The position numbers were made by a program, and so were the translations under genes. DNA of 40,115 bases from Candidatus Brocadiia bacterium (lineage in GTDB: Bacteria > Planctomycetota > Brocadiia > SM23-32). The DNA lies in the NCBI GenBank assembly GCA_046538485.1, contig JBKHIT010000045.1, forward strand, positions 1-40,115, given 5' to 3'. How positions within the stretch are numbered: position 1 is the stretch's first letter; each line of letters starts with the position of its first letter. The notes below the pieces were generated by a model. It did no database searches. It was given only the letters and a program-made list of their open reading frames with translations, and was not told the DNA's origin. Positions 4,410 through 31,599 of the stretch are shown piece by piece.

Positions 4410-4853
4410 TCAGTTTTGTGACGATTCGATCTGCCTGATCTTATCCTGCATTTTTTTCAGTGCCTTCGACCGTTCTTGTCCGTCCTGATCCCCCCAGTAA
4501 TCTGCGAGTTCTAAAATGCGGTCGTAGTATCCCCACACACGTTCAAAATCGGGATCAAAAGAGCCACCTGTGTCGTAGTCAGCCACTTTTCGCTGATCAT
4601 GCAGCTCTACCATGTGATTACCGATTTTCCATAAAGCACGCACCCCAGAGCACTTAAGCCCTTCGGCAACTTCTGCATGGACCCTTCCACCAGATCCAAA
4701 ATCACATCCCCAGTTCGTCATCATCTCCCTCGCAAACAGAAAGGCAGCATAGTATATTCTGCCGACGGCCGTCCGATGCGCTGCTTCCTGCAACCCGCTC
4801 GGCGGCTCATTCTCAAGACAGCTTGCTATCTTTGCAAATGCGTCCGCATCCAT
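4410..4853 (-). CDS. HEPN domain protein (UPF0332-like), putative toxin/RNase
   Basis: RTAVGRIYYAAF motif, central His (GRVHAEV), LHDQRKVADYD; start 7 nt after the upstream stop. Confidence 0.8.
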   Translation of the reverse strand: MDADAFAKIASCLENEPPSGLQEAAHRTAVGRIYYAAFLFAREMMTNWGCDFGSGGRVHAEVAEGLKCSGVRALWKIGNHMVELHDQRKVADYDTGGSFDPDFERVWGYYDRILELADYWGDQDGQERSKALKKMQDKIRQIESSQN

Positions 4854-4860
4854 GCCGGGC

Positions 4861-5655
4861 TCAGTCCACCTCTATGACAAATGCATTGACTGTTTCGGGG
4901 CCGATCGCGTCGAACAGCCGGTCCAATAGCTCATCTTCCTTTTCCACTGCTTCCGTCCCCCTCAAGCCGGCCTCAATGGTTACCTTCAGAAGCTGCATGC
5001 CCGACATATCATCGTATTCCGAAACGGATAAATGAAGCGTTTTGTAAGTGATGCAATCGTTGATTGCCGATATGACAGCCAATAGAGCATCGCCTAATTG
5101 ATTCCCCAAAACATACTCATAGGCTTCATTCGTAAAAGTCGTGCGTGATATCCAAGCCAACAAATCAGCAAATCTTGAATTGTCCAGTGCAATACGACTA
5201 TGAACACCTTCCTCCGCCCATTCCAAAATGGAACGTTCAATATCCTTCAACCATGACGAGTCATTTGTTAGGAAAAAGCTTGGACCGCCTACTATGTCCC
5301 GCACGGCATCGGCCAACCGATCTGAAATGTAGCCCTCACAGTGCTCCCGAGCCTCCATCCCCGCCGAACGGCCGAGCACTTCGGAACTCTCGGAATCTAC
5401 AAATTCCAATTTGACGTCCTTGCTCCACTCCAGTATTGCGGCACTGGGACTCGGTGCTTGAGATTCCCATGCGTCCCAGAAAAGTTCCTGCCACGAAGGC
5501 ATATCTCCAGAATCAGACCTCCATTCCCGAGGAGTCCCACTTGCCCATTCAGTTGGTGAGCCCGCAGCGTACGTAACCTTCACCTCTGGGATATTGGGCA
5601 ACTGGAGCATGCGAAACACATCGCATTCAAACCTATCGCGTAACGCGTTGCTCAT
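4861..5655 (-). CDS. Hypothetical protein (264 aa) with a C-terminal degenerate nucleotidyltransferase-like domain of the kind found upstream of HEPN genes
   Basis: ATG at 5655 with GGAGGT RBS, overlapping the upstream gene end by 23 nt; C-terminal beta-beta-alpha-beta pattern LHLSVSEYDD..LLKVTIE..EAVEKEDELLDRLF..FVIEVD. Confidence 0.6.
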   Translation of the reverse strand: MSNALRDRFECDVFRMLQLPNIPEVKVTYAAGSPTEWASGTPREWRSDSGDMPSWQELFWDAWESQAPSPSAAILEWSKDVKLEFVDSESSEVLGRSAGMEAREHCEGYISDRLADAVRDIVGGPSFFLTNDSSWLKDIERSILEWAEEGVHSRIALDNSRFADLLAWISRTTFTNEAYEYVLGNQLGDALLAVISAINDCITYKTLHLSVSEYDDMSGMQLLKVTIEAGLRGTEAVEKEDELLDRLFDAIGPETVNAFVIEVD

Positions 5656-6379
5656 CCAGCACCTCCATAATCGTGGCGTTCCTATCAAAGAGCCCTTCAA
5701 AAAACCGCGAGACCTCGCCCTCCTGGAAACGAATCTCCGGCTCATCGGGATTTGTGTTTATGTCCGTTTCAACGAAAAGGACCTTTTCGTTCTCTCGCTC
5801 CTCAGAAAGTCGCACGGCTTTGACCCGGACAATTCTATTCAGTTCGCAGGTCTTTTCCCCGCTGTCCCAAGGAATACGATTGTTAAAATGCCACTCCGCC
5901 GAGTATGGATTCGCATCAAAGAAGTCGGGCATATTGGGGGTAAATAGTGTCTGTTTGAGTCGCTGAACGGCGGCCGCCTCAAGATCACACCTGACGTGCA
6001 TCACCCCAGATACTCGACTAACGTCCAAGCTCAGATTCGTCTGCAGGCCCGGCAGTAGGCGTCGGCACAAATCCCAGAATTCAGCAGGTGCAGTGTTTTC
6101 CTGCGACTCGTCCTCACGTGCAGGGAAATAGAGCAAGTTGATTCTTGTGCCTGTGCATACAATCTGCCAGACTTGAGACGCCTCAGTAAGTATTGCTCTG
6201 GGGGCCTCGGCAGGCGTCTGACCGGGGAGGTCAATGGGGAGGGGCGAAAGGGAAGCCAGACGATCATACTCGGCACATTCGCTCTGCAGTTTCTGAGCGA
6301 GCTTCCGCGGACTTCCAAGCAGAGGGTCCACGATAAAAATACTCCCCATTAGCCGTATTACATTTTTTTTCTCAGGCAC
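5633..6379 (-). CDS. Hypothetical protein, TIGR04255-like
   Basis: GTG start with AGGAG RBS; 248 aa; motifs PAEAPRAIL..WQIVC..RINL, VSRVSG, FVETDINT. Confidence 0.55.
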   Translation of the reverse strand: MPEKKNVIRLMGSIFIVDPLLGSPRKLAQKLQSECAEYDRLASLSPLPIDLPGQTPAEAPRAILTEASQVWQIVCTGTRINLLYFPAREDESQENTAPAEFWDLCRRLLPGLQTNLSLDVSRVSGVMHVRCDLEAAAVQRLKQTLFTPNMPDFFDANPYSAEWHFNNRIPWDSGEKTCELNRIVRVKAVRLSEERENEKVLFVETDINTNPDEPEIRFQEGEVSRFFEGLFDRNATIMEVLDEQRVTR

Positions 6380-7496: not shown

Positions 7497-8243
7497 TTAT
7501 TGCGATTCCGCCCACATCTCGACTTTGCTCAGCAGCAGAATTTCGCCTTTGTGCACGGTGCAGGCGAGACGGCTGGGGGCGGTTTTCTTGCCTTTGTAGT
7601 TTTTTGCAGTCACTTCCGCTTCTTCACCGTTGATTCTGGCCGATAATTCGCCGTCCTGGCGTCGGATCTCCACGTATGCCAGTTTTTTGCGGGGAAGGGA
7701 CAGACGGAAACCTTTCTTCAGTTTCGCCGCGCTCTTGCCCTGAGCCAGTTCCACGACCGAATCACCGGACGCTTTGAGCGCCAGTCGGACGACGAAATCG
7801 CCTTTGAGGGTCGCGTTGTGCAGGATGCGGCTGCGTTTGGCGCGGTCGGCTCCTTCCAATCTGATGGCGCCGCTTTTCTTGTCGCCCGTTCGTTTCACAC
7901 TCCATTTTCGTTTCCGCCAGCTGTAACCAACGTAATGCCATTCCGTCCACGTGCCGGGATGGGCCGGGATCTGTTGAAGCTTTTTGACACCCCGGCTGTC
8001 CTGTTCTTTTGTTTCGGCAGCATCATCCGTTTTTTCAGCCGTTTCGGCCGCCGTTTGCGCTTCTTCGAGCTTATCGATCTTCTTTTCCAGAACGGCGATG
8101 CGCCCGCGAAGGTTACCGATGACTTCCGACTGGTCGTAGACCCGTTTTTTAAGTTTATCGAATTCTTCCCTCTTAATTTCACCGCCTGCCAACGCTGGCA
8201 CAGCCAATGCTGTCAATGCCAGAATCATAAGCACTTTTCGCAT
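7497..8243 (-). CDS. Secreted hypothetical protein (signal peptide, coiled coil, beta-sandwich-like C-terminal domain)
   Basis: MRKVLMILALTALAVPALA signal peptide; GGAGGAGG RBS; Lys-rich. Confidence 0.75.
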   Translation of the reverse strand: MRKVLMILALTALAVPALAGGEIKREEFDKLKKRVYDQSEVIGNLRGRIAVLEKKIDKLEEAQTAAETAEKTDDAAETKEQDSRGVKKLQQIPAHPGTWTEWHYVGYSWRKRKWSVKRTGDKKSGAIRLEGADRAKRSRILHNATLKGDFVVRLALKASGDSVVELAQGKSAAKLKKGFRLSLPRKKLAYVEIRRQDGELSARINGEEAEVTAKNYKGKKTAPSRLACTVHKGEILLLSKVEMWAESQ

Positions 8244-8408
8244 AGTGTTGCCTCCTCCAAGTCGTTCTGTGAAATACAGATTGAGTCATCAAGCTCTCTC
8301 GGTCATATACATTAAGCAAAAGAACAGGTCCCAGCAAAGATATAACTGAACACTCTGCCATTCGCCGTCCCCGCGCCACAAAAATCTCTGAAAGGGAAAC
8401 CGCAATTG

Positions 8409-8525
8409 TTATCCTTCCTCTACAACCCCCACTTCCTCCTCCGTCAGGCCGTCGGGTCTGTAGACTATCTGGTCTATGAGCCAGTCGGTGGAGCGGATGG
8501 TTTCGACGTCATACTCGCCCGTCTC
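8409..8525 (-). pseudogene. 3' remnant of a Type IIG (Eco57I/TaqI-like) restriction-methyltransferase gene
   Basis: IRSTDWLIDQIVYRPDGLTEEEVGVVEEG* matches the family C-terminal consensus IDxxVYxLYGLTEEEIxxVE, with LY decayed to PD. Confidence 0.75.
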
Positions 8526-8613
8526 CGGGTTTCTCTGTGGAGACCAGGGGCCGGAGCCTATTCGTTCACTATAACGTAGAACTGCTTCAGGTATCGGTAT
8601 TCTCCCACCGGCC

Positions 8614-10176
8614 TCAAATCGACGCGCGGACGCTTTCGAGGTTGAATCGTCCCGGCCGCGCGAGCATGCCAAGGGGGAAAGGCTGCGACCGGTTCTTGTT
8701 GTCCTCGCTCGACCATAGATCGGCCAGTTCCTTGAGCTCACCGGCCTCGATCAGAACTATGTTTCTGCCAATGTGCTCGGCAGTGTAACGCAAGGCAGTT
8801 GTGTCGGACTCTGGGGTGAATGAGGGAGCGACGACCAGAAATACCGGCACATCCTTCTCCGCACGATCCATGTATGAATCAAACTGGCGAAGAAAATCCT
8901 TCAGGCGGATCGGCGATGCAGAACTCTTGTTGTCCCACATTACCCACTTGTCTTCAAAAGATAAAAGCCCGTCCGAGTGCTCAGTCCCAGCCTGACGCAA
9001 AGGCGAAAGGTTGAGTTTGGTTTCAAAAAGATAAGTCGTTGCATCCTCGAAATACCCGTCGATTTCGCTGTCGCGCTCAATAATATGTTGCTTTCGGAGA
9101 ATATCTGTATCACGGGAACCCAGTTCTGTGAAATAATGATACCACACTTCCCGTTCGTCACCTTCTTCGACACCGTGTAGTTCCAGCTGATCGTAATGTT
9201 TGATTATTCTATCTATTCGGTCGTCTTTGAGCCCGGCTACATTAAGTCCCAGATCAGCACACCATTCAGCCAAATCCTGGCTGTTTAATCCCCCGCGCGG
9301 GCTGTCACCCCCAAGAACAACTGACGGCCGCACCGTCTCCATAACGCGGCTTTGTAGCTCCGTCAGGGTTGTGCGAGTCGGATACGGCACCCCGGCGTTT
9401 TTCAGCACATTTTTCAGATATGATTTGTTACGTACCGCCTTGTATTCGAGCAGTTGTTCGTATCCGGGGCGGCGAATCTCGACGTTGAGGGCCTCCTTAA
9501 TTTTGTCGGCGATTTCTTCAGGAATAACAACGAAATCGATCCCATCATCATCCCGCACCTCAAACAGCAGTCCCTTGCTCTCAAGAAGTCGGACTGTGTC
9601 GGTTATCTCATCCCGGGTGTGGAGCCGATTGTCAGATTTTGGGTACTTGCCCAGTTTCGCCTCTAAAATGCGATGCTCGCGTTCCGTTATTTGAAGACGT
9701 TCCCGCAGTTTACGAAGCAAATTCGCCTCATCCACAGACTTTGTCTCGCGATGCTCCCACGCGGTCTCAAGAACGAATTGGTAAAGGGAGAGATTCTTGT
9801 AGCGAACGCTACTTTCTTTATCGCCAGCAAGTTCGCGAAGTGTCTTTTCGTCGGCCGCTTTGACGATCTGTTGCTCCTTCTGTTGCACCTCTTCACTGAG
9901 CTCTTCGAACTCAAGGAGGTGGCCATATTCGTTGAGCAGAACATCATGGAGTATGATCCACGCTAATACACGGTGGCTAAGGTCATCGTTCACATAAAAA
10001 ACTTCATTGAGCGCCTTTTTAACTGTCTCGGGATGGGTATACTGGTTCTTTGTATCACAGATGCTCTCCCGAAGCCGTTGCTCGCCCAAGTGCTGATAAT
10101 CACGCACGTGCGCTGAGGCCGTACGCTTGAGCGCGTTCTTGGTAGGTATTGCTTCCAATGCCTTTTCGAATCTCAT
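8614..10176 (-). CDS. Multi-domain putative nuclease: TerB-like helices, wHTH-like segment, SAP/HEH motifs, C-terminal PD-(D/E)xK domain
   Basis: YQFVLETAW..DEANLLRKLRERLQITEREH (TerB-like); LAEWCADLGLNVAGLKDDRIDRI (SAP-like); FEDAT..HSDGLL..WDNKS (nuclease-like); GGGAGG RBS. Confidence 0.6.
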   Translation of the reverse strand: MRFEKALEAIPTKNALKRTASAHVRDYQHLGEQRLRESICDTKNQYTHPETVKKALNEVFYVNDDLSHRVLAWIILHDVLLNEYGHLLEFEELSEEVQQKEQQIVKAADEKTLRELAGDKESSVRYKNLSLYQFVLETAWEHRETKSVDEANLLRKLRERLQITEREHRILEAKLGKYPKSDNRLHTRDEITDTVRLLESKGLLFEVRDDDGIDFVVIPEEIADKIKEALNVEIRRPGYEQLLEYKAVRNKSYLKNVLKNAGVPYPTRTTLTELQSRVMETVRPSVVLGGDSPRGGLNSQDLAEWCADLGLNVAGLKDDRIDRIIKHYDQLELHGVEEGDEREVWYHYFTELGSRDTDILRKQHIIERDSEIDGYFEDATTYLFETKLNLSPLRQAGTEHSDGLLSFEDKWVMWDNKSSASPIRLKDFLRQFDSYMDRAEKDVPVFLVVAPSFTPESDTTALRYTAEHIGRNIVLIEAGELKELADLWSSEDNKNRSQPFPLGMLARPGRFNLESVRASI

Positions 10177-10332
10177 TTTGCCTCCCTAACAATTTGGTGG
10201 TCCCTTTTCCTCTGCTCAGCCTCCCTCAGAAGTCATTCTCATGGTACAATCAATCGTTTAGATTTCAAGGGTTTCCGCATACGAAAGCGGTTTTCCGGGT
10301 GTCTTGAACTTGCGTCTGAACCCTCGTGGGCG

Positions 10333-13278
10333 TCAATCTCCCCCCCGTTCCAGATTCAAGGCCAGCAGTTTTTCCAAAATTTGCTCATCGTCCATGTCCG
10401 GGGTCCACTCTTCGTCGCCGGTGGTCTGGCGGTAGGCGGCGCAGACTGCTTCGTCGAGTTTGGCGTGGGCGTTCTGGAGCCAGGTGGGTTGCTCGTTATA
10501 CAGGTTGGTCAGCGTGCGTTTTTTCAGAGCATCGGCGAAAGGTGGATCCGCCACCGTGCGTTCATACCGGACCGTGCCTATCCCCCGCTCGTCGGGGTCC
10601 TCCACGTAGCGGGACCACGGACCGTCCACCGAACCGGGAAATTCGAGCGTCTCCGTAACGGTCCACTCGGGAGGATTCAGCCAATTTTCACGCAATTCGT
10701 CCAGTTCCCGGGCCGCCCCGGCAATGTTTTCCACGAGCGGATCGCGCTCCGGCTCGTCACCTGGCGGCCAGGGGAACGGGAAGGTCTGGAAGCAAGTGGT
10801 GGGCGTGTAGCGGAAACCGCTCTCCGCCTCACGAAGCTGCGTTCCCTGCGCTCGGGCCCAAACTTCATGCACCCTGGAGTGCAAAACGCCGAAAAAGTAA
10901 TGGTCAGACCGTGGAAAGACGATCAACTGATCGTCCGGCAAAACGGGTTGGGAAAGCCATGCGAAAAGACGATGTTTGGAAACTCGTGGGCTGACGCAGA
11001 AGCGTGCCAATGTACCGGCGCGCTCTCGCATATCGGGTTGGGTTACTCCGTGCAACCACCACTGTTCCCGCAACCGGGGATCATTATTTTCCAAACGCTT
11101 TTTCTTGACGTTATCTACAATATACTGGAACGGCAATTCGTACAAAGCAGCTTTTTCTTGAGACATATCCACGCCAAAATCTATTACCCAAATTCTTCGG
11201 GTGCGCGACGTAATGTCTCTTCCATTGTAATAAGGTCTTATTACATCAGAATTCGGATTCCCGTGTGGGTTGGGCGATTCCTGTAGGAATTGGAGAGCCA
11301 ACTTCTCGCCGATATCGAAATCCCCCCTCTTCTGAGAACCTCGCGACGAGAGTTCACCGGTTATCGGAATCTTCACCGCTTTCGTAACATCTATTGTTCC
11401 CGTTAGATTGGAGTGAATGCTCTCCACTTCCCGCCCATCCAAAACCTTCCTTTCTTCACGGCCAGTATCAAAAGCAACCATGGAAACGTGAACGTGAGCT
11501 CCATCAAGCACCCACGGCCGATCGCTTTCTGCAAAAAACATTTCGCATTCTTTCTTTATCCGCTGCAGAACGGTTCTGTTTGCCCCGCCGCGTATCCCTT
11601 GGGTTGCAAGTAGCCCTACTCGTTTGCAATGCGCGTGCTTCAATTGCCGAAGTGCGTTTTCGAACCAGTAGCAACATAAATCCGAAGATTTCGGCAATCG
11701 ATCAGAGTACACAGTAAAAAGTTGCTCAAGATACTCGTCTCCCAATTGCTCTCTCAGGAAACTACGGCCCAAAAACGGCGGGTTCCCCACGATGTAATCA
11801 ACTTTGGGCCACTCGGGTTCTTGTGGATTATCCGGGTCGCTCAAGTCGAGGATGGCGTCTTTGTTCTGGAAGTTCCCCTCCATGGGTCTGAGCACGGGAT
11901 CACTGCTGATGCCGAACCCGTTGGCTTTGACCCATTGCAAATACCCGATCCATACCACCATCTGCGCCAGATCATACGCATACGGGCTCACCTCGATGCC
12001 GTAGAGCTGCCATGGACCCACCATGGTCATGATCTGACCCAGGTTGTGCTGTTCGGCAAACAAAATAACCTCTTTTTCCAGATCTTTGAGCTTCTGAAGC
12101 GTCACGTACAGAAAATTCCCCGAGCCGCAGGCCGGATCCAGCACCTTCACCTGGGTCAGCCGCTCGTGAAACCGTCTCACCAACCGCTCGGCTTCATTGC
12201 GACTGCGGGTGCGCACGGATTTTGACATCGGTTTGTCGCGTTCTTTCCCGCTTTTCCGGCCGGTGCGGATGAGATTCTCGACCGTCTCTTTGGTCTCTCC
12301 CCACCGGTCTTCCAGCGGCCACATGACGACGGGGTCGACAAGGGTTTCGATGTCTTCGCGGCTGGTATAATGTGCACCGATCTGCGCGCGTTTGTCGGGA
12401 TCCATACCCCGTTCGAAAAGCGTGCCGAAGATAGACGGATCGACTGCGCCCCAATCGAGCTGGGCCGCCTGGCGGATGCGTTCGATCTCGTCGGCGGTCA
12501 TCTCAAGAACCGGCCCGCCCACGAACAGGTTGCCGTTGAAATGCCGGATCTCTTCCATCCCAAAATCGCCGCCTTCCGACATGGCATCGAAAAGCTGCCC
12601 CACCAGTTTGTGGAACCGCTCGGGTTCCTCACGCGTCTTCTCCACCAGGCGGCTGAAAAGGTTCTCGGGCAGAAGCTCGATATCTTCCGCGAACAGGCAA
12701 AAGACCATGCGATCGAGGAAATGTGCCACCTCCTGGCTGTCCAGCCCCCTCTCGCGCATGTCCTGAGCGATACTGCCGATTCGTTCCGCGGCCTCGCTGG
12801 TGATAGCCTCGCTGGTGCGGCCGGGACGCAGTTTATCGGGATGGTAGAAAACCGCACGCAAAATCTCCAGACTGCGCGGGTCGGCCAGTTCGCTGAGCGC
12901 GATTTCATGGACCTCGGTCCGCGTCGCGGTAAAATTAGTATGGATCACGATACGGTCGAGGTCGCAGACTACCAGCAGCGGGGGATTTTCGAGGGCTTCC
13001 CGGTATTCCAGAAGCTGATCATAGGCGTCATCGAGATCGCGTCCGGGACCCTTGTATTCCCAGGCGAAATGGCCTTTTTTCCAGACATCCGCCCAACCGT
13101 GGGAACCGTGGTGTTTTTCGGTGAGTTTCTCGAAAGTAAATTCTTCCCCGGTGGTGTCCGCGGCGGCCGGTTTGGGATGGTCCAGTAGTTCGCAGAGGTC
13201 GCAGAAATGCTGCTGGGCGGCAGACCGTTCGCTGAGGTCGTGGTCGCACCATTTCTGGATGAACTGTGACGGATTCAT
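10333..13278 (-). CDS. Type IIL (MmeI/YeeA-like) fused restriction endonuclease-N6-adenine methyltransferase
   Basis: N-terminal SERSAAQQHF..ADV..WEYK; IFGTLFE; GAHYTS; VLDPACGSGNF; GNPPF; RYTPTTCFQTFPFP; RTLTNLYN..WL..AH..LD.AV..AY. Confidence 0.92.
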   Translation of the reverse strand: MNPSQFIQKWCDHDLSERSAAQQHFCDLCELLDHPKPAAADTTGEEFTFEKLTEKHHGSHGWADVWKKGHFAWEYKGPGRDLDDAYDQLLEYREALENPPLLVVCDLDRIVIHTNFTATRTEVHEIALSELADPRSLEILRAVFYHPDKLRPGRTSEAITSEAAERIGSIAQDMRERGLDSQEVAHFLDRMVFCLFAEDIELLPENLFSRLVEKTREEPERFHKLVGQLFDAMSEGGDFGMEEIRHFNGNLFVGGPVLEMTADEIERIRQAAQLDWGAVDPSIFGTLFERGMDPDKRAQIGAHYTSREDIETLVDPVVMWPLEDRWGETKETVENLIRTGRKSGKERDKPMSKSVRTRSRNEAERLVRRFHERLTQVKVLDPACGSGNFLYVTLQKLKDLEKEVILFAEQHNLGQIMTMVGPWQLYGIEVSPYAYDLAQMVVWIGYLQWVKANGFGISSDPVLRPMEGNFQNKDAILDLSDPDNPQEPEWPKVDYIVGNPPFLGRSFLREQLGDEYLEQLFTVYSDRLPKSSDLCCYWFENALRQLKHAHCKRVGLLATQGIRGGANRTVLQRIKKECEMFFAESDRPWVLDGAHVHVSMVAFDTGREERKVLDGREVESIHSNLTGTIDVTKAVKIPITGELSSRGSQKRGDFDIGEKLALQFLQESPNPHGNPNSDVIRPYYNGRDITSRTRRIWVIDFGVDMSQEKAALYELPFQYIVDNVKKKRLENNDPRLREQWWLHGVTQPDMRERAGTLARFCVSPRVSKHRLFAWLSQPVLPDDQLIVFPRSDHYFFGVLHSRVHEVWARAQGTQLREAESGFRYTPTTCFQTFPFPWPPGDEPERDPLVENIAGAARELDELRENWLNPPEWTVTETLEFPGSVDGPWSRYVEDPDERGIGTVRYERTVADPPFADALKKRTLTNLYNEQPTWLQNAHAKLDEAVCAAYRQTTGDEEWTPDMDDEQILEKLLALNLERGGD

Positions 13279-13367
13279 GGTAGCCTGATTATAAGAAGCA
13301 GGCAGGGATGGGGCAAGACGGAAGGTCGGCAGAGATCGGGGTCAAGGACTACGGATAACAGCAAAGC

Positions 13368-13486
13368 GGCGCCCTCCGTTCGGGGGCTTTGATATGCGGG
13401 CACCTTCTCATCCCGGAGCTTGCGCGCCAGACAGCGGCGCGGCCGCGCACCGGGATACGTCTGCTTCGCCCCCATCCGGGGGCTTA
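13368..13486 (-). repeat. Degenerate REP/MITE-like element
   Basis: Terminal hairpins GCCCTCCGTTCGGGGGC and GCCCCCATCCGGGGGC enclose CCCGG...CCGGG with an internal hairpin. Confidence 0.55.
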
Positions 13487-13590
13487 TGTAGGGGACCAGA
13501 TAACTGGCTCGTATTCATGTTTGCAGACAAATCGGGCAACCAGCAATGGGCGAGGCCGCGAAAAGCCCGAGAATTGATTGTATCCGTTTC

Positions 13591-13706
13591 CTCTCAAGCG
13601 CCTCTTCGGGACGCGTTTTGTTTGGTGACCCTTGAAACCCCGAACTCCGGCGGCTGTCGCCGCCTCCGCACGGCGCTACACTCTCAAGCGACCCTCCGGG
13701 CCGCCT
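13591..13706 (-). repeat. REP/MITE-like element, inverted copy of 25394-25506
   Basis: Reverse complement contains CCGTGCGGAGGCGGCGACAGCCGCCGGAGTTCGGGG..GCGTCCCGAAGAGGCGCTTGAGA, matching 25394-25506. Confidence 0.85.
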
Positions 13707-13893: not shown

Positions 13894-15000
13894 ATGAGCA
13901 AACGGAAAACTATCTTGACGGTCGGGAAGTTTCTCGCCATTTTCTTTGTGCTGGGGCTTCTGTACTTTGTTCTCCGGAGTATAGGATTTCAGGAAATACT
14001 TTCGGCGATTCACGAGGCGCGTTTCGATACGGTTCTTGCGGCGATTGGGCTGAATTTTGTTGTTTTTTTGTTGTGGACATTTCGCCTTCAGCTGATGATG
14101 AATCCCGAGGATAGAGCCAGCATTTTAGTGCTTTTCCCGATCTATATGGCGGGAGTTTTTGGAAATATTATCACTCCGGGGGCTCGCGTGGGCGGGGAAC
14201 CAATTCGGGCGTATTATATGGGTAAAGTGCTCGGGGGGGAGCGCAGCAGTCACCTGGGGATTTTAATCGCTGACAAACTCGGCAATATGGCCGTTTATTT
14301 CGGTTATCTGCTCGTTGCCGTGAGTTTTGTGGCTCTGTTTGTCCCTCTCCGTTTGGAATTCAAGATTCTGCTTGAAGGGCTTGTTCTGCTGATAATCGGT
14401 GCCGCTGTGAGTGGCGTCTTGCTGCGACATCACATCGGGGTTAATTCGCCGTTTATGAGTAAGCTACTCCGGTTTCTCTACAATGAACCTATTCTTCGTT
14501 TTGCTCGAAAGAGATTCCAAACCTATCAGCATTTTGAGAGTTGGGTTATTGAAAAACTCGACAATATTTTCACTCCCATAGGCAATGCGGCCACCAGCCC
14601 AACAACATTGGCGAAAGTTATCTCCATATCGAGCGTGGCCTGGTTGCTTTTCTTCCTGGCCAATTTCATTTTGTTCTTTGGGTTTGGCGAACCGGTCAGT
14701 TTCTTCAAAGTCCTTGTCATCGTCTCCATTGCGAATTTCTGTGGCGACCTCGGCGTCTCTCCGGGGGGGGCAGGATTTATGGAGACGGCGATGATTGCTC
14801 TCTGTGCTGCCTTTGGAGTGGAAAGTCATGCAGCGGCCGCCGTTGCGCTCGTGAGCCGAGGCATTTTCTACTTCTGTGGACTTGGCATAGGTGGGGCCTG
14901 TTTTGTGGTTCTGGCTTTGATGTATGGCCGACGTAAAGAGAACGACGAAGAACCGTCGCCAGAGCCCGAATCCGCATCGACCAAAAGCGAAATCGGTTGA
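13894..15000 (+). CDS. Lysylphosphatidylglycerol synthase TM / UPF0104 flippase-like membrane protein
   Basis: Multi-TM; GNIITPGARVGGEPIRAYY and SPGGAGFME motifs. Confidence 0.88.
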   Translation: MSKRKTILTVGKFLAIFFVLGLLYFVLRSIGFQEILSAIHEARFDTVLAAIGLNFVVFLLWTFRLQLMMNPEDRASILVLFPIYMAGVFGNIITPGARVGGEPIRAYYMGKVLGGERSSHLGILIADKLGNMAVYFGYLLVAVSFVALFVPLRLEFKILLEGLVLLIIGAAVSGVLLRHHIGVNSPFMSKLLRFLYNEPILRFARKRFQTYQHFESWVIEKLDNIFTPIGNAATSPTTLAKVISISSVAWLLFFLANFILFFGFGEPVSFFKVLVIVSIANFCGDLGVSPGGAGFMETAMIALCAAFGVESHAAAAVALVSRGIFYFCGLGIGGACFVVLALMYGRRKENDEEPSPEPESASTKSEIG

Positions 15001-23259: not shown

Positions 23260-25260
23260 ATGGCCATTGATCGCATGAAACACGCAACCCTGCTTGCTCC
23301 GAAACGGTTGACGGGGCAGCTGCTCGATTCCCTCCAGGAGCAGGGCGTCATCCACGTCGAGGAAACGGCCGAAGAGTTGCCCGAATCCGAAGGATTTGCA
23401 AAGCCGGCAAAATCGACCGACGAGGCCGACCAGCATGTGAATAAACTCGAGGAGATTCTGCGCATCTTCGACGATTTTGAGGTCAAAGAATCCTCCCTGG
23501 CCAAAATGGTCGTCCACCTGCCGACGCGAGTCGATCAAGCCGAACGCGGCCGCGTTCTTGAGAACTTCGACTACCGCCCCCTTTACGAAGAATGCACCGA
23601 AGCCGCGCGGGAACACCAAAAGCACCAGGACGCTATCGGGCGGCTGGAGGAGGAAATTGAGAACCTCGAATTTTTCCAGGATCTGCCGTTCTCCCCCGAA
23701 GACGTGCGGTCGTTGAAGACCGTCAAGTGCTGGGTGGGAACTATGCCAGCCACCCACTTTCAACACTTTGAGAATGATGAGGAAATGGCGGAGGTCGTGA
23801 GCGTGCAGAAGGTGCGGGCCCGCAAGCGGGGAATCGACATGGTCGCGGTTGCCCTCCCCGAAGACGCCGATGAGGCCGGGCGTATCCTGCGGCGCGAACA
23901 GTTTGCGGAACGGACCCTCCCCGAAATCGATGAGAGCATCGCGAGTCGTCTGGAAAAACTCCAGGTCCAGAAAAAGGAACATGATGAGGGTGCTCGGGAA
24001 TGCAGCAAACGCATCGAAGAAGCATCAGAGCATCAGCGTGAAGTCGAAATTATGCTCGGGTACTGGGAGGCCCAGAGCGCCCGGATACGCGCCGAAAACA
24101 ATGCTCTGAGGAGCAACCGTATCGCGGTGATCTCCGGTTACGTCCGCGCGAAAGACCAACATCGGCTGTATGATTTGCTCGATGCGGATTTTCCGCAGGT
24201 CAGCGCGCTGTATCGCGATCCGACGCCCGAAGATGATGTGCCCGTCTCTCTGACTCACGGCCCCCTGACCAAACCGGTGCGGGTGCTGGTGGATATGTTC
24301 GGGGTGCCCGATTATTTCGGGTTCGATCCGACGCCTTTCCTGGTGATAAGTTTCCTGGTGTTTTTCGGTATGTGTTTTGCCGACGCTGTCTACGGTCTCG
24401 CCCTGGCACTGATCTGCTGGTATTTATCCCGAAAAGCAAAAGGATACGAGGGCTTGAGAAATCTTATTCTGCTTTTCGCATACTGCGGCGTTTCAACCAT
24501 GGTTTTTGGGGTGCTGAGTGGGTCGTGGGCGGCCGATCTACCCATCCGTATCGCCGGGGACAAAAGCGCGGTGGCTACAGCCGTTAATACAATGGCGGTG
24601 GTCTCGCCCATGGACAGTGCGGTGGACCTGCTGCTGCTGACGTTTGCGATCGGTGTGGTTAACCAGCTGTATGCCATGGTTCTGAAAGGTTACGGTCAAA
24701 TACGCCGGGGGCATCCGCTTGACGCTTTTTTGGATGCCGGTCTCTGGATCATCATGATCCCGAGTTTCCTCATTATCATAGCTCCCATCTTTGTCGAGAT
24801 GCCCGAGAGAGTACACAGAATAGGCACGAGAGTGGGGTTGGTCACGGCGATTCTTCTGGTTCTGACACAGGGTCGCAAAGAGGAGAGCATCATCGGGAAA
24901 GCAGCCATCGGGCTGGTCAGTCTCTACGGTGTGATGGGATCTTACGGATGTGTTTCGTTTATCAGTGACATGTTAAGCTATTCGCGTCTTCTGGCGCTGG
25001 GTCTCGCGACGACCGTTATCGGGATGTCGCTCAATATCGTGGCGGAGATGCTGAACATCGGTGGTGTGATTGGGATTATTCTTTTTGCTCTCGTTGTGGT
25101 GTTTGGCCACAGTGTCAATTTTGCACTCGGTATGATCGGGGCGTTCGTCCATCCGGTGAGATTGATTTTCGTTGAGTTTTTCAGTCGGTTCTACAAGTCC
25201 GCAAGCGATCCGTTCCGTCCGCTTTCCTGGAGCACGGATCACGTCATTGTGGAAGGTTAG
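23260..25260 (+). CDS. atpI: V/A-type ATPase subunit I (a)
   Basis: MAIDRMK, FGVPDY..FDPT, SDMLSYSRLLALGL, HPVRLIFVEFFSRFY. Confidence 0.95.
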   Translation: MAIDRMKHATLLAPKRLTGQLLDSLQEQGVIHVEETAEELPESEGFAKPAKSTDEADQHVNKLEEILRIFDDFEVKESSLAKMVVHLPTRVDQAERGRVLENFDYRPLYEECTEAAREHQKHQDAIGRLEEEIENLEFFQDLPFSPEDVRSLKTVKCWVGTMPATHFQHFENDEEMAEVVSVQKVRARKRGIDMVAVALPEDADEAGRILRREQFAERTLPEIDESIASRLEKLQVQKKEHDEGARECSKRIEEASEHQREVEIMLGYWEAQSARIRAENNALRSNRIAVISGYVRAKDQHRLYDLLDADFPQVSALYRDPTPEDDVPVSLTHGPLTKPVRVLVDMFGVPDYFGFDPTPFLVISFLVFFGMCFADAVYGLALALICWYLSRKAKGYEGLRNLILLFAYCGVSTMVFGVLSGSWAADLPIRIAGDKSAVATAVNTMAVVSPMDSAVDLLLLTFAIGVVNQLYAMVLKGYGQIRRGHPLDAFLDAGLWIIMIPSFLIIIAPIFVEMPERVHRIGTRVGLVTAILLVLTQGRKEESIIGKAAIGLVSLYGVMGSYGCVSFISDMLSYSRLLALGLATTVIGMSLNIVAEMLNIGGVIGIILFALVVVFGHSVNFALGMIGAFVHPVRLIFVEFFSRFYKSASDPFRPLSWSTDHVIVEG

Positions 25261-25393
25261 CCCGGATTTTTGGCTCAGAAGGGTTGTGAACGGTGTTTAA
25301 TAAATATTCTACCCTAATTTGGCAAGGATGGCTTCCAGTTACCCGTAAAATCCGGGCCAAAAAACGACCATTTCCCCCGACGAGGGTCGTTCA

Positions 25394-25506
25394 GCGCTCC
25401 GAAGGAGTGCCTGAGAGCATAGCCCCGTGCGGAGGCGGCGTCAGCCGCCGGAGTTCGGGGGTCAGGGTGCGAAAAAATAGAATGCGTCCCGAAGGGACGC
25501 TTGAGA
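25394..25506 (+). repeat. REP/MITE-like element inside the ATPase operon
   Basis: GCGCTCCGAAGGAGTGC - AGCCCCG - GGCGGCGTCAGCCGCC - GCGTCCCGAAGGGACGC; homologous to 13591-13706. Confidence 0.85.
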
Positions 25507-25676
25507 AGAAACTGGTGCCTTCATGTTTTCGTAAGTTCTTACTTATGAACGGTATGCGCCGTTTTATATGGCCTGTACCCGTAAGTTGCAGGCCGGACAG
25601 TTGAGAGCGAGTTGCGCTGATTTGATAAACGACTTTGTCCTTTTCGTCTGGAAAGCACAAATTGGAGGATTTGACG

Positions 25677-26213
25677 ATGTTTGATGAACTGTTGAGGCAA
25701 TACTTCATTGCGTCGGGACTTGGCTGGGCCGCCGCGGGAGCGATGTTTGCCGTGATGTTTGCGTGCATCGGTTCCGCCCGCGGGATCCGCGTTGCCGCGT
25801 CTCAGGGGACCGGTATTCTCACCGAGAAGCCCGAACTCTATCCCTGGGTGCTGACATACTCGGTTCTGCCCGGAACTCAGGGCCTGTACGGTTTTGTGGC
25901 CGCGATCCTGATTGCGACCAACGGCGGTCTCAACGCCGGGAAGTTCACCGTGTCGCCGCTTGTCGGTGTTGCGCTGCTGTTCGTCGGGTTGTGTATGGGC
26001 CTGGTCGAGTGGAAGAGCGCCGTCTACCAGGGCGAAACCTGTTCTTCCTGCCTTAATCTGGTGAGCAAGGAACCCGACCAGGCGGGACGATCCCTCGCCC
26101 TGCCGGTTCTGGTGGAGTTCTACGGGCTGGTGGCGCTGCTGGTGGCCTTCCTGCTGATTAACTGGCTCACCGCCGGCGAGCTCGAATTGGTCAATCCCAT
26201 GATGGGCGGCTGA
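25677..26213 (+). CDS. atpK: V/A-type ATPase subunit K (c), four-TM NtpK type
   Basis: GSARGI, LPGTQGLYGF, AVYQG, LVEFYG; ATG at 25677 with GGAGG RBS. Confidence 0.95.
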   Translation: MFDELLRQYFIASGLGWAAAGAMFAVMFACIGSARGIRVAASQGTGILTEKPELYPWVLTYSVLPGTQGLYGFVAAILIATNGGLNAGKFTVSPLVGVALLFVGLCMGLVEWKSAVYQGETCSSCLNLVSKEPDQAGRSLALPVLVEFYGLVALLVAFLLINWLTAGELELVNPMMGG

Positions 26214-26248
26214 TTGACCGTACCTCGTCCATTTTCGAGAGGTCCACA

Positions 26249-26848
26249 ATGACAGTTGAACGTATACGTGAAGCGGTTCTCTCCGAGGCACGGGAAGAAG
26301 CCGAAGAGATTGTGAGAGAGGCCCAGGAACTCCACGACAGTCGGCTTGAGTCGAAGAAAAAAGAAATCGATCGTGAACTGGAAGGCCGCTACGAGCAAAA
26401 AGGTCGGCGCGCTGAACAGGAGCAGGAACGCCGGGTTATGAACCGCCGTTCCGAACATAACCTCAAACTCCTGCAGATGCGAAATTCCATTCTGGATGAC
26501 CTGTTTAAGCGAGCCGGGCAACGGGTGGCTGAGCTCCCCGACGATCAATACCGCGAATTGCTCGCCGAATGGATGGATGAGATCCCGGGTGGCACCGAAG
26601 GTAAAGTTCTGTGCCGCGAGAAAGACGCCGATCGCGTCCGTCCGCTCATTGACGAACTCAACCAGGAGCGGGAAACGGATGCCCAATTGGAGCTTGTTCC
26701 CGGAGACGACCCGGAGTTGGGCGGGGTGATCTTTCAGACCGAGAAACTTGAGGTGGACCTGTCGGTCAAATCCCGGGTCAATTCACTTCAAGAAGAACTG
26801 GCCCCTGAAATTGCTGCTGAAATCTTCCCTGAAGATATCAGCGTCTGA
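26249..26848 (+). CDS. atpE: V/A-type ATPase subunit E
   Basis: N-terminal coiled coil; LGGVI..EVDLS; operon position. Confidence 0.9.
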   Translation: MTVERIREAVLSEAREEAEEIVREAQELHDSRLESKKKEIDRELEGRYEQKGRRAEQEQERRVMNRRSEHNLKLLQMRNSILDDLFKRAGQRVAELPDDQYRELLAEWMDEIPGGTEGKVLCREKDADRVRPLIDELNQERETDAQLELVPGDDPELGGVIFQTEKLEVDLSVKSRVNSLQEELAPEIAAEIFPEDISV

Positions 26849-26884
26849 GGTCTCCAGCTACAAATTAAGGAAAACAAAATTCCG

Positions 26885-27877
26885 ATGTCCGCTGCCGTGA
26901 GAAGAGATCAATGGACCTACGCCAGTGGCCGCACCGCGGCCCTGGAGTCCCGGATGGTCGATATGGATTTTTTTCAGAATATCATCCAAATGTCGGACGC
27001 CGACAATATGGTGCCGCGACTGTCCGAGACTCTGCTGGGGGAAACTCTAAACCGGAGCGATGATCTGCGGGAAGCGGATCGGGCCATCGATGAGGCCTAC
27101 AGGGAATTTATTGTCGAGCTGCAGGGCGTGAGCCCGGACCCGCTGGTGGCGAATCTGACGTTGTGGCGGAAAGACCTGCGAAGTCTGCGCAATCACATTA
27201 AACGGAATTACATGGACGTCTCAGTTTCGGAAGTCCCCTCCCGCTGGCAACCGGCGCAATGGGACCGCCTCTGGCAGGACCTGCTGACTCCCCTGCCGCC
27301 GATTTTTGGCGAGATTGTGGAACGGTGCCAGGACGTGGCCGAATCGGCTGAAAGCCCGGAGATGTTCGATGCCGTATTCGACTCAGTCTCCCTCAAAGTG
27401 CTCTGCGATAAAGCGCGCGAAACCGAGTCTGAATTCATTACAAACTGGTGGCAGCGCTACGATACCGCGCACGGCGTCGAGTTTTTGTGGCGGGGCCGTG
27501 CTCTGGGCTGGGGCGATGAGGCCATGAATCTTCTGGTTCGCGAACGACAGGATACGGAGTTGTTCGATGAATTGTCGGTGCGGGAACTGGATGAATGGCC
27601 CGAGCTTTTGCCGTCCAGCATGGAAGGTCTGGACGTGAGCGGCCTCAGCAGCGGAAGCGGTGTGGAAAAGATCCGTTCCTTTGCACAGTCCTACGACCGA
27701 TGGTTGATGGATTACGCACGGGAAGCCCGTTACATCGCCTTCGGACCCGAAAGGATTTTTGGAGGTTTGCTCGGTCTCAGCGCGGAGTCCTACAATATGG
27801 GACTCGCCGTGGTGGGCCGGGCCAACCAGGTGGACCCGGATCGGTTAAGCAAGCGCATGAAAGCCCTTTACGTCTGA
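26885..27877 (+). CDS. atpC: V/A-type ATPase subunit C (d)
   Basis: YASGR..LE.RM, AFGPE, C-terminal RMKALYV; operon position. Confidence 0.88.
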   Translation: MSAAVRRDQWTYASGRTAALESRMVDMDFFQNIIQMSDADNMVPRLSETLLGETLNRSDDLREADRAIDEAYREFIVELQGVSPDPLVANLTLWRKDLRSLRNHIKRNYMDVSVSEVPSRWQPAQWDRLWQDLLTPLPPIFGEIVERCQDVAESAESPEMFDAVFDSVSLKVLCDKARETESEFITNWWQRYDTAHGVEFLWRGRALGWGDEAMNLLVRERQDTELFDELSVRELDEWPELLPSSMEGLDVSGLSSGSGVEKIRSFAQSYDRWLMDYAREARYIAFGPERIFGGLLGLSAESYNMGLAVVGRANQVDPDRLSKRMKALYV

Positions 27878-27891
27878 GCCTGGAGAAAGAA

Positions 27892-28221
27892 ATGGCGGAA
27901 ACAGACAAAGTTGTCGCGATCGGCCCCCGGGAAGAGATGAAAGGGCTTCGCACCATCGGAATCGAACTGGTTCCCGCCGAGAGGCCCGAACAAATGCTCG
28001 AAACGCTCGACGAACAGGTCAAAAAACCGGAAGTGCGGCTCGTGGTGGTCAGTGAGAGTGTGAGCGAAGGGAGCCGTGAAGAACTGATGAATCTGCGTCT
28101 TGAGACGGATACCGCGATCCTGCTGATTCCTTCTCACCGTGGTTCGCAGGGCGTAACGCTCGATTGGATCCGTCAGGAGATGGAACAGTCAATCGGAGTC
28201 GATGTTATTTCTGAGAAGTAG
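27892..28221 (+). CDS. atpF: V/A-type ATPase subunit F
   Basis: KVVAIG..GLRTIG, ILLIP, QSIGVDVI; true start is the ATG at 27892. Confidence 0.9.
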   Translation: MAETDKVVAIGPREEMKGLRTIGIELVPAERPEQMLETLDEQVKKPEVRLVVVSESVSEGSREELMNLRLETDTAILLIPSHRGSQGVTLDWIRQEMEQSIGVDVISEK

Positions 28222-28241
28222 ACCCCTCATGGGAGGGATAC

Positions 28242-30134
28242 GTGTCTGGCGAAATGAATGAAAAAAACAGCGAACAACAACCCGAGACCCCGGAAGAGTC
28301 CGAAAGGGAAGTCGGCCGTGTCCGACGTGTATCAGGCCCTCTGGTTGTGGCCGAAGGCCTGGCGGGCGCGGAAATGCACGAGATGGTCCGCGTCGGGGAA
28401 GATCAACTCTTCGGGGAAGTGATTGAAATACGCCGGGATGCTTACTCGATTCAGGTCTATGAAGAGACCGAGGGGATCGGCCCCGGGGCGCCCGTTCATC
28501 CGACGGGTGACCCCTTGAGCGTGGAACTCGGTCCCGGGCTCATAAGCGCCGTTTACGACGGCGTGCAGAGACCACTGGATATTCTCGAAGAACAGTGGGG
28601 CGCTTACATCGTCCGCGGAGCTCAGGTCGATCCGCTCGACCGGGAGAAATTGTGGACCTTCGAGCCGTCCCTCGAATCCGGAGAACAGGTTGAAACCGGG
28701 GACGTTCTTGGCGTTGTCCAGGAAACAGCTGTTGTGGAACACCGTATTATGGTTCCGCCCGGTGCCTCTGGGGAACTGGTATCGATCGAAGAAGGTGAAC
28801 ATACAATCACTGATACGATTGCGGTCATCGCCGGTGAGGACGGCGAGACGGAAGTGACAATGTCCCAAAGATGGCCGGTCCGAGAAGCGCGGGGTGTTCA
28901 GCGAAAACTCGCGCCAGAAACGATGCTTCTGACCGGACAACGTGTCATCGATATGTTTTTCCCACTGGCCAAAGGCGGAACCGCCTGCATCCCCGGACCG
29001 TTCGGGAGTGGCAAGACCGTCATCCAGCACCAGCTCTCCAAGTGGGCCGATGCCGAAATTATTGTCTACGTGGGCTGCGGAGAACGCGGGAACGAGATGA
29101 CCGACGTGCTGATGGAATTCCCGGAGTTGACGGATCCCCGCACGGGTGAACCGCTTATGAAACGCACAGTTCTGGTCGCCAATACCTCAAATATGCCTGT
29201 GGCGGCGCGGGACGCGTCGGTCTTCACCGGAATTACCATTGCTGAATATTTCCGCGATATGGGGTATTCCGTCGCGCTCATGGCCGATTCGACCTCACGA
29301 TGGGCCGAGGCAATGCGTGAGATTTCGGGGCGGCTGGAAGAGATGCCCGGCGAAGAAGGTTACCCGCCGTATCTGGCCAGCGAAATAGCGAACTTCTACG
29401 AACGAGCGGGTCGAGCGGTTTGTTATGGACAGGACGGCCGCGAGGGGTCTCTCAGCCTGATCGGCGCGGTGTCCCCGCCCGGCGGCGATCTGAGTGATCC
29501 AGTGGTCCAGGCGACCCTGCGGGTGGTGCAGGTTTTCTGGAGTCTGGAAGACGATCTGGCCTCGGCGCGGCATTTCCCGGCTATTTCCTGGCTGCGTAGT
29601 TATTCGCTTTACCAGGATGCGATCGACGACTGGGCTGATGAAAAGGTGCACGAAGATTGGTCGAAGAACCGTGGCCGGGCGATGGCGATTTTGCAGAAAG
29701 AATCCGAGCTCGAAGAACTTGTCCGCCTGGTCGGGATGGAATCGCTTTCCGGAAAAGATCGGCTTCTCATGGAAGTCGCCCGAATGATTCGGGAAGATTT
29801 CCTCCACCAGAACGCTTTCGATGAGATCGACACCTATACGGCTCTGGAAAAACAGTATCGGCTTCTGAATATCATCCTGCACTACGATGAACAGGCGCGT
29901 GATGTGCTGGAAGCGGGCGTGCAACTGGAGGACATTCTGGGTGTCGAGGTTGTGGAGGATATTGCACGGGCCAAATTCATCCCCGAGGAAGAGATGGAAC
30001 AGTTCGATGAAATAGACGACAAGATCGAAGAACAACTCAAAGCCCTTCGCGGCGGAGAGGATCAAATGACGCAGAGCACTCGAACTGAATCACAGACAGA
30101 ACAAACTGAAACCGAGGAGGCCGCCAGTGGCTAA
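28242..30134 (+). CDS. atpA: V/A-type ATPase catalytic subunit A
   Basis: [31 protein letters not shown]. Confidence 0.98.
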
Positions 30135-31566: not shown

Positions 31567-31599
31567 CCCTTCTTTCAGTCTCAAAAATGATCTAAGACA

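Follow-up and report, generated by a model that had tools for sequence, protein, structure and literature searches.

Is a nuclease-like gene that lies beside a restriction-modification (RM) gene a part of that system, or does it work alone, and in that case how would it spare the genome that encodes it? We addressed this question for P0001, a gene at positions 8614-10176 on the minus strand of a 40,115-nucleotide stretch of DNA from a Candidatus Brocadiia bacterium (contig JBKHIT010000045.1), which as a whole is referred to as the window. An earlier note on this DNA, made from the letters, had described the product as a candidate new defence nuclease, built of TerB-like, winged-helix-like, tandem SAP/helix-extension-helix (HEH) and PD-(D/E)xK parts and lying next to a Type IIL RM enzyme of the MmeI kind. 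The reading that we favour, though tentatively, is that P0001 is a stand-alone and conditionally active endonuclease, most likely Type IV-like, that is, modification- or context-dependent. A FokI-type nuclease without a protecting methyltransferase must spare its own genome, and a Type IV-like role is therefore the most likely one. We also favour this reading because of the analogy with stand-alone fusions of a winged-helix (wH) domain and a nuclease (Helbrecht et al. 2024, PMC11037411). In that paper, such fusions without a methyltransferase are taken as likely to be modification-dependent, since they would otherwise be toxic, and several of them are reported as validated 6mA-dependent Type IV enzymes.

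The gene family and its C-terminal nuclease domain

The open reading frame (ORF) proved to be a real gene of 520 codons on the minus strand, with full-length homologues. A word-indexed search (8000 scored candidates) returned 150 proteins that match P0001 at E ≤ 1e-3 and, among the 120 matches listed, most span nearly the full length of P0001 with 41-64% identity. The ORF is therefore not a chance one. We also searched 1.84 billion representatives of clusters defined at 50% identity exhaustively with HMMER, which identified 256 representatives of the family at E ≤ 1e-3, 60 of them at E ≤ 1e-30. Where the source gives them a name, the homologues are called 'hypothetical protein' or 'SAP domain-containing protein'. 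On these sequence comparisons, P0001 is a member of a small family that is conserved over its full length and occurs in many bacterial phyla and a few archaea. All peptides quoted in the earlier note were found in the translation of P0001, namely ITDTVRLLESKGLLFEV at residues 191-207, YLKNVLKNAGVPYP...TLTELQSRV at residues 253-279, LAEWCADLGLNVAGLKDDRIDRI at residues 302-324 and EHSDG...WDNKS at residues 399-418.

The whole gene and the parts of its nuclease domain lie in the window as follows.

8614..10176, minus strand: whole P0001 ORF, ATG to stop (520 amino acids (aa) and stop), member of a stand-alone SAP-domain/FokI-type nuclease family
8617..9141, minus strand: FokI-type PD-(D/E)xK cleavage domain, residues 346-520, assigned from Foldseek and sub-threshold Pfam matches
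8923..8973, minus strand: predicted catalytic core, residues 402-418 (DGLLSFEDKWVMWDNKS), with D402 and D415-x-K417, assigned from invariance
9046-9048, minus strand: helix glutamate E377, assigned from invariance

We compared the full-length AlphaFold2 model of P0001 (mean pLDDT 92.5, pTM 0.77, from a 38-sequence alignment) with the PDB by Foldseek. Four matches reached E ≤ 1e-3, and they are three FokI chains and N.BspD6I (2fok_B, E 7.7e-6 and probability 1.00; 1fok_A, E 8.8e-5; N.BspD6I, E 8.8e-4). HindIII and the small BspD6I subunit came next, with high probability and weaker E-values. The FokI matches were gone once residues 342-520 were removed (none at E ≤ 1e-3), and therefore the likeness to FokI resides in the C-terminal domain only. 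The same position was marked by the Pfam family FokI_cleav_dom (PF09254), which matches 17 of the 38 aligned members, always at around residues 350-424 and always below threshold. The comparison of AlphaFold models with Foldseek thus confirms that the C-terminus has a predicted restriction-endonuclease fold, as the earlier note had expected. When the whole model was searched against the viral structure library BFVD, no match was found at E ≤ 1e-3.

The order of secondary structure elements also fits a PD-(D/E)xK core (alpha, beta-beta-beta, alpha, beta), with a helix at residues 371-387, strands at around 392, 403-407 and 410-416, a second helix at 425-437 and a last strand at 445-450. In 31 sequences of the nuclease domain, seven residues are invariant (E377, D402, G403, W414, D415, K417 and Q431) and S418 is nearly so; the first six of the seven are invariant or nearly so in the 38-sequence alignment as well. 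The assignment of a PD-(D/E)xK domain from the C-terminal E..SDG..DNK motif was thus right as to the fold and the D and K residues, and the domain can now be specified as FokI-type. It was not right as to the glutamate, since E399 varies; conservation is found instead at E377, a glutamate of the preceding helix.

The catalytic residues of FokI are D, D and K, and its cleavage domain must dimerise. Sequence profiles never reached FokI, and D402, D415 and K417 are therefore presumed equivalents of these residues. A two-copy model of residues 342-520 gave a median score of 0.61 for the homodimer, against 0.78 for one unrelated control, and was not used as evidence either way.

P0001 had no match to any family of PADLOC-DB v2.0.0 at E ≤ 1 and no significant match in Pfam, in NCBIfam or among PDB sequences. 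These results, with the conserved catalytic residues, uphold the proposal of an independent nuclease whose architecture corresponds to no named system.

The N-terminal module and what it may recognize

The remainder of the protein is composed of the following parts.

9895..10176, minus strand: N-terminal all-helical region, residues 1-94, part of the compact module of residues 1-333, assigned from helices of the model
9652..9894, minus strand: helical region, TerB-like candidate, residues 95-175, with the motif S-x-DE-x-NLL-x-KLR, assigned from sub-threshold Pfam TerB matches
9481..9624, minus strand: winged-helix-like segment, residues 185-232, with a helix at 188-200, a hairpin at 205-208/214-217 and a helix at 220-229 (DSSP of the models)
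9322..9435, minus strand: first SAP/HEH motif, residues 248-285, with helices at 251-260 and 271-281, assigned from SAP matches in distant members
9181..9291, minus strand: second SAP motif, residues 296-332, with Pfam SAP at 304-328 in P0001 and above cut-off in several homologues
9142..9180, minus strand: flexible linker that joins the N-terminal module to the nuclease, residues 333-345, with low pLDDT at 336-338 and the lowest conservation

When residues 1-341 were modelled alone, from the sequences of the window and of the loci described below, they reached a pLDDT of 92 and a pTM of 0.89, and are therefore predicted to form one compact unit. A fold search of this segment against the PDB returned no match at E ≤ 1e-3, the best being RPC62 with E 0.1, and chains of FokI, BspD6I and TerB were absent from the 50 listed fold matches. 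In the models, residues 1-333 are a compact and confident module without a solved structural relative. The linker that follows contains the sole segment with pLDDT below 50 in the AlphaFold2 model (residues 336-338). In the ESM Atlas, the best score of residues 1-235 was 0.79, for a cluster of SAP proteins, which is below lead level.

Residues 1-94 have no match in Pfam, NCBIfam or the PDB, and R18, D26, Q45 and R69 are invariant among the closer homologues. In the helical region that follows, the Pfam family TerB (PF05099) matches 7 of the 38 members, always at around residues 84-157, with 16.5-23.0 bits against a cut-off of 24.4; the family ENT gave a weak match in 14 of 31 segments. The TerB-like signature proposed earlier is therefore a recurrent signal at one position, which stays below threshold, is not matched by P0001 itself and is not accompanied by any TerB structure in the fold search of residues 1-341. 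For the winged helix, the predicted helix-helix-helix-hairpin order fits, and G202 and P219 within the segment are invariant. Matches to MarR-type winged-helix folds in the same fold search were not significant (probability 0.2-0.44), and the segment alone retrieved nothing significant in a PDB profile search or in a Pfam scan of 31 segments.

The tandem SAP/HEH assignment was borne out at the level of the family, since both positions score as SAP and, with members scanned singly, SAP (PF02037) matches 31 of the 38 at E ≤ 1 and SAP_new25 matches 26 of the 38. Three distant members, P0142, P0157 and P0141, match SAP significantly with their first motif (at around residues 230-263, with E 2e-9 to 2e-7). 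P0001 itself has a SAP match at the second motif only (13.7 bits against a cut-off of 23.9, E 0.051), and several homologues exceed this cut-off, for example with 39.8 and 37.1 bits. In profile searches of the PDB, the second motif matches the SAP domains of DEK, THO1 and SIZ1, and the first motif matches SAP proteins that include 1kcf.

In the mechanism that we propose, a flexible linker would join an N-terminal module of around 333 residues, composed of helical, winged-helix-like and two SAP parts, to the FokI-type domain. The module would bind DNA and might recognize foreign DNA by some feature, for example a modified base or an unusual structure. The tethered cleavage domain would then cut at a distance after two molecules have paired, as in FokI. 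Should the module indeed read a modification or a structure of DNA, the family would constitute a new class of modification-dependent restriction enzymes, which might also serve as reagents. More specifically, P0001 could be a single-gene immune nuclease of bacteria and archaea in which the N-terminal module is a new foreign-DNA reader that gates the FokI-type domain, a proposal that we find possible but doubtful. If true, this reader would sense modification, damage or topology, and it would represent a new Type IV-like class together with a compact DNA-reading scaffold coupled to a cleavage domain that is used in engineered nucleases.

The same module may instead sense something other than a mark on DNA. 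P0001 would then be a nuclease of the abortive-infection type, activated by a trigger such as a phage protein, a stress or a membrane cue, upon which the FokI-type domain would be released and would degrade DNA indiscriminately. The TerB-like signal at one position in 7 of the 38 members is in line with this alternative, as TerB occurs in the systems Shango, Bunzi and Dionysus, for which 10.1101/2025.09.30.679545 proposes a surveillance role. A compact module without a structural neighbour, evenly conserved along its length, also fits a sensor of a conserved cue, and a single gene without a methyltransferase would suffice for it. In addition, some of the loci adjoin genes of Gabija, AbiE, Uzume or PDC. 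We nevertheless judge a trigger-activated nuclease unlikely. TerB scores stay under the Pfam cut-off throughout, the fold search recovered no TerB structure, the two SAP motifs and the wH-like segment suggest that the ligand is DNA, 29 of 40 loci lie outside defence contexts, and no trigger is known.

The match of the first SAP motif to 1kcf, which we take to be a yeast junction resolvase, bears on another alternative, because in that protein SAP precedes the nuclease. P0001 could be a structure-specific nuclease of the cell, targeted by its SAP and wH-like parts and devoted to repair, recombination or chromosome maintenance rather than to immunity. In that case tandem SAP motifs would have been put to a use that is rare in prokaryotes.

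Distribution of the family and its genomic neighbourhoods

We searched for relatives of P0001 with a pattern scan built on an alignment of 20 closer sequences, using one genome per species in 185,579 species. As the scan is limited by its pattern, its counts are lower bounds. It extracted 284 candidate stretches, 215 of which were confirmed by tblastn, and the best 80 of these confirmed stretches, corresponding to 79 loci, were kept. ORFs were called in all 79 loci and in the window, for a total of 1166.

Conservation is fairly even along the protein, with a mean pairwise identity by domain of 0.23-0.39 in the 38-sequence set, in which the N-terminal module comes close to the nuclease domain in its degree of conservation. 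A quick maximum-likelihood tree of 69 near-full-length proteins, from which 13 of the 82 family ORFs were left out as shorter than 480 aa, largely tracks the phylum (17 label changes, compared with a mean of 33.2 when labels are shuffled; none of 200 shuffles was that low). P0001 clusters with one sequence of Brocadiaceae and one of Victivallales, with a support of 99. Archaeal-labelled copies from bins of Thorarchaeota (L018), Woesearchaeota (L039) and Nitrososphaera (L057) lie inside bacterial clades. The first of them sits on a branch of 0.034 among sequences of Fermentibacterota, and may reflect a recent transfer or a mis-binned contig.

Three paralogues, 71-75% identical, are found on one Chloroflexota chromosome, OZ242304.1 (L015, L025 and L049). 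The similarity of their DNA is essentially confined to the ORF, with a single 56-bp match outside. In the tree, each copy groups with sequences of other Chloroflexota genomes, and the three are therefore old retained lineages and not recent copies, whose retention hints at a diversified function. ORF-confined similarity, like the variable neighbourhoods of the family and the presence of a LAGLIDADG gene and a reverse transcriptase gene near some copies, would be expected of a selfish, free-standing endonuclease gene of the homing type that spreads as an ORF-sized unit. We consider this origin very improbable, since paralogues at this identity, each with orthologues elsewhere, are old rather than recently copied, the tree follows taxonomy, and neither a recurrently interrupted target gene nor an intron or intein context was seen in the loci.

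In 2 of the 79 loci the gene is split, into 98 and 409 aa in L032 (10001-11562) and into overlapping 297 and 250 aa in L043 (10001-11568). These copies are probable frameshifted pseudogenes or assembly errors.

Relatives in phages and plasmids are few. Among 50,697 phage records, one carries a distant relative, a haloarchaeal tailed virus whose protein, annotated as hypothetical, is 26% identical over residues 173-517; among 72,556 plasmid records, the only one is a Natrinema megaplasmid. The virus is Halorubrum virus Humcor1 (L080, 5455-7095), in which HrrHm1_140 is a 'hypothetical protein' of 546 aa. The megaplasmid is Natrinema pNVE500 (L081, 5455-7095), in which WP_138247088.1 is again a 'hypothetical protein' of 546 aa, with an adjoining integrase. 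Both proteins match P0001 over residues 173-518 with 26-28% identity, and therefore the part composed of the wH-like segment, the SAP motifs and the nuclease is found again behind a different N-terminus.

Variation in length was also seen among the cluster representatives. Six of them, of around 600 aa (P0134, P0136, P0139, P0152, P0235 and P0254), are about 80-95 aa longer than P0001. Some of these variants are extended at the N-terminus, where P0134 has a weak zinc ribbon and no other domain is seen, whereas in P0235 and P0254 the extra length separates the SAP motifs from the nuclease; P0254 also has an E-x-K variant of the catalytic motif. The nuclease domain of the latter two is the same as in the rest of the family (hhalign probability 98 and 96), so that no swapping of effectors is seen. 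No longer or fused form was found among proteins of 911-2600 aa, which is weak evidence.

For the neighbourhoods, we considered the 40 of the 79 loci that have at least 5 kb on both sides (full-flank loci). Pfam was used to scan all ORFs that have at least 150 aa and lie within 4 kb of the family gene, 260 in total, of which 135 were scanned with a cut-off of E ≤ 1e-5 and 125 with one of E ≤ 1e-8. PADLOC was run on 19 of the 260, picked after Pfam, and the defence counts are therefore lower bounds without a baseline. Restriction- or defence-type genes occur within 4 kb in 7 of the 40 full-flank loci, which are the following.

L001: Mrr/PDC-S02 neighbour
L015: MTase_II neighbour
L021: GmrSD_C neighbour
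L060: AbiEi and GajA neighbours
L072: UzuA neighbour
L073: KAP NTPase/PDC-S20 neighbour
L077: 1487-aa protein with a Cap4-nuclease domain

Among the relatives, L060 (8454-15350, Verrucomicrobiae) has the clearest setting of a defence island; the family gene is flanked there by an AbiEi antitoxin-like gene on one side and by a full-length GajA gene of Gabija (E 3.6e-235) on the other, with an unannotated ORF of 603 aa in between. Transposase, integrase or other mobile-element genes were found in 8 of the 40 loci, and the union with the defence set comprises 11. The association of the family with defence is weak.

The neighbourhoods also bear on the alternative of a cellular DNA-processing nuclease. 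The other 29 full-flank loci have only housekeeping, metabolic or unannotated neighbours, and L004, L005 and L007, from Chloroflexota/SAR202, share a housekeeping synteny. A tree that tracks taxonomy, conservation over the full length and old paralogue lineages, each kept in several Chloroflexota genomes, are in agreement with such a role. Repair or replication genes also occur within 4 kb in 8 of the 40 loci (MutS, Lhr, MgsA, Ogg, PolA, RecO with MutS2, LexA and SbcCD), and none of them recurs. We rejected these neighbours as a signal, because they amount to approximately 4% of the 260 flanking ORFs, which is roughly the background; a share of approximately 4% is about what is usual for genomes at large. 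A cellular role is improbable in our judgement, given that no repair gene is conserved as a neighbour, that the family is rare and patchily distributed (215 stretches confirmed by tblastn in 185,579 species, as a lower bound, and 256 clusters at 50% identity) and that split copies exist. Elsewhere, to our knowledge, cleavage domains of the FokI type belong to restriction enzymes, which also counts against a cellular role.

In the window, the neighbour of P0001 and the gap between the two genes are as follows.

10177..10332, no strand: gap of 156 bp that separates P0001 from the MmeI-like gene, given as context and outside the protein
10333..13278, minus strand: P0002, complete MmeI-like Type IIL/IIG RM enzyme of 981 aa, assigned from Pfam and PADLOC, neighbour only

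P0001 lies exactly 156 bp downstream of the MmeI-like gene, as had been noted. All five MmeI domains are present in P0002 according to Pfam (MmeI_N, hel, which is the helicase-spacer, Mtase, TRD and C), PADLOC assigns it to REase_MTase_IIG with E 6e-276, and its sequence has an apparent nuclease motif, D64-x9-E74-x-K76. The MmeI-like enzyme is taken to be self-sufficient because of these five domains and this motif. A scan for promoters and terminators over 8200-13700 found one minus-strand promoter-like site in the gap (10268-10241, 9 of 12 matches) and no terminator-like hairpin on the minus strand of the gap. With three promoter-like sites found and 2.8 expected, the sites are at chance level, and the scan is therefore uninformative on the co-transcription of P0001 and the MmeI-like gene.

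A shared strand, a 156-bp gap without a terminator-like hairpin, and a top fold match to FokI, which is a Type IIS enzyme, might be taken to indicate that P0001 belongs to the RM system, either as a second nuclease or 'guard' of the MmeI-like enzyme or as a Type IIS subunit protected by its methylase. The relatives argue strongly against this role. None of the 79 loci has an MmeI-like protein, as a phmmer search with P0002 matched only the copy in the window. No neighbour family is conserved either, since the largest flanking cluster in an all-against-all clustering is found in 9 of 80 loci and never within 300 bp. A DNA methyltransferase occurs within 4 kb in 1 of the 40 full-flank loci (L015) and is absent from the other 39. 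The MmeI-like enzyme is self-sufficient, and the N-terminal module of P0001 is unlike the recognition domains of FokI or N.BspD6I. Sequence-specific recognition domains are expected to diverge, unlike this module, which is conserved across phyla. The functional tie to the Type IIL gene that had been proposed as one option thus fails; because relatives normally stand alone, the pairing looks incidental, and the family context largely refutes a guard or Type IIS role, which has in our view next to no chance of being correct. More generally, as the pairing is missing in 79 of 79 relatives, the case shows how little the position of a gene next to an RM gene in a single genome says about a functional link.

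P0001 and the MmeI-like gene would rather be neighbours through a shared location in a small variable island. The G+C content of the window is 0.49-0.53 over most of 4-12 kb, compared with 0.57-0.59 on either side, and an ORF of 147 aa (4410-4853, minus strand) has a weak match to HEPN_IX in PADLOC (E 1.2e-5). These two observations suggest a small variable island that would hold the HEPN-type ORFs, P0001 and the MmeI-like gene. Seven base pairs upstream of the HEPN_IX-matching ORF lies an ORF of 294 aa (4861-5745, minus strand) with no match in Pfam at E ≤ 1e-3 and none in PADLOC, and the two may form a two-gene HEPN-type module (4410-5745). Further along the window, a cluster of the V/A-type ATPase (23260-32271) comprises subunit I, subunit E, subunit C/AC39 and the catalytic A subunit. 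A membrane protein of the LPG_synthase_TM family is encoded near the family gene both in the window (13894-15000) and in the Aegiribacteria locus L023 (12913-14025); the two lie on different sides and strands, and this is therefore probably a coincidence.

How does the Type IV-like reading fare against all these data? The traits of an accessory gene fit it, namely rarity, split copies, paralogues and some defence or mobile contexts, to which the distant homologues on a haloarchaeal virus and a megaplasmid were added. The setting in the window fits as well, with its Type IIL RM neighbour, weak HEPN_IX match and lower G+C content. Several observations weigh on the other side. Both the nuclease activity and the modification dependence are predictions from sequence and models. 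The best FokI_cleav_dom match of the family has 23.8 bits (P0142) against a cut-off of 25, P0001 itself has none at E ≤ 1, and phmmer and three profile searches of PDB sequences missed FokI and returned SAP proteins or noise only. The link to FokI therefore rests on the fold and the sub-threshold Pfam matches, because the sequence routes did not reach FokI. The putative winged-helix reader has a predicted topology alone, and the TerB-like call is sub-threshold. P0001 lacks a PADLOC match, only one phage and one plasmid record carry relatives, and the 29 loci with ordinary neighbours include the shared synteny of L004, L005 and L007. The taxonomy-tracking tree looks more like that of a resident gene than of a fast-moving defence gene. 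Even conservation of the N-terminal module argues against diverse specificities and fits a housekeeping ligand equally well. Finally, a conflict with the neighbouring adenine methylase could arise if N6-methyladenine were what P0001 reads.

Comparison with known systems

FokI (1fok/2fok) is the best structural match of the P0001 nuclease. In both, a C-terminal PD-(D/E)xK domain is tethered to an N-terminal part, which binds DNA in FokI and is predicted to do so in P0001, and both have a conserved D...D-x-K set. The N-terminal 333 residues of P0001 do not match the FokI recognition domain. Type IIS enzymes, from which FokI-type cleavage domains are known, are accompanied by a methyltransferase; the family of P0001, by contrast, has no cognate methyltransferase (1 of 40 loci) and is conserved across phyla over its whole length. 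N.BspD6I and the small subunit of R.BspD6I (6qnz, 2ewf and 2p14) form the second group of fold matches, with E 8.8e-4 and weaker. They have the same cleavage-domain fold (2p14, probability 0.98 and TM 0.49 on the target), whereas the recognition part of N.BspD6I differs and the similarity to P0001 is lost without the nuclease domain.

Type IV wH fusions such as DpnI, HhiV4I, FcyTI and Psp4BI (PMC11037411) are stand-alone modular nucleases like P0001. A methyltransferase neighbour is mostly lacking in both cases, in 87% of the wH fusions according to the same source and in 39 of 40 loci of the P0001 family. The wH fusions combine a wH-type reader with a nuclease, and in P0001 the wH part is putative, with a topology that is predicted only. 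P0001 differs from them in its C-terminal FokI-type nuclease, its two SAP motifs and its large helical region, and SAP is not mentioned in PMC11037411.

The analogy with Shango, which the earlier note had drawn from TerB, fails, since P0001 has neither a helicase or ATPase partner nor a PADLOC match. Shango is composed of the TerB protein SngA, a helicase and an ATPase, and P0001 shares with it only a possible, sub-threshold TerB-like region. More broadly, the loci of the P0001 family lack the helicase, ATPase or pore-forming partners of the TerB systems Shango, Bunzi and Dionysus, and the TerB-like region of P0001 is fused to a nuclease in a single chain. According to 10.1101/2025.09.30.679545, these three systems are multi-gene and without such a nuclease.

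Both HEH motifs of P0001 align with the SAP proteins of eukaryotic type (THO1, DEK, SIZ1/PIAS and MKL1) and with 1kcf, with weak E-values of 0.01-0.6. They differ from these in being prokaryotic, in tandem and inside a larger compact module. Our literature searches found no paper on a SAP domain with a FokI-type nuclease and none that pairs a SAP domain with phage defence, the combination of FokI and SAP domain leading to unrelated plant papers; the candidate-system tables of 10.1101/2025.09.30.679545 may bear on novelty. PMC13700489 was rejected as a relevant SAP protein because it concerns an unrelated viral SAP protein.

Compared with these systems, P0001 is of a known kind as a modular restriction-type nuclease, and what is new is its N-terminal module. 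The family places a FokI-like cutting domain in a stand-alone protein, behind a large and well-conserved putative DNA-binding module without a solved relative.

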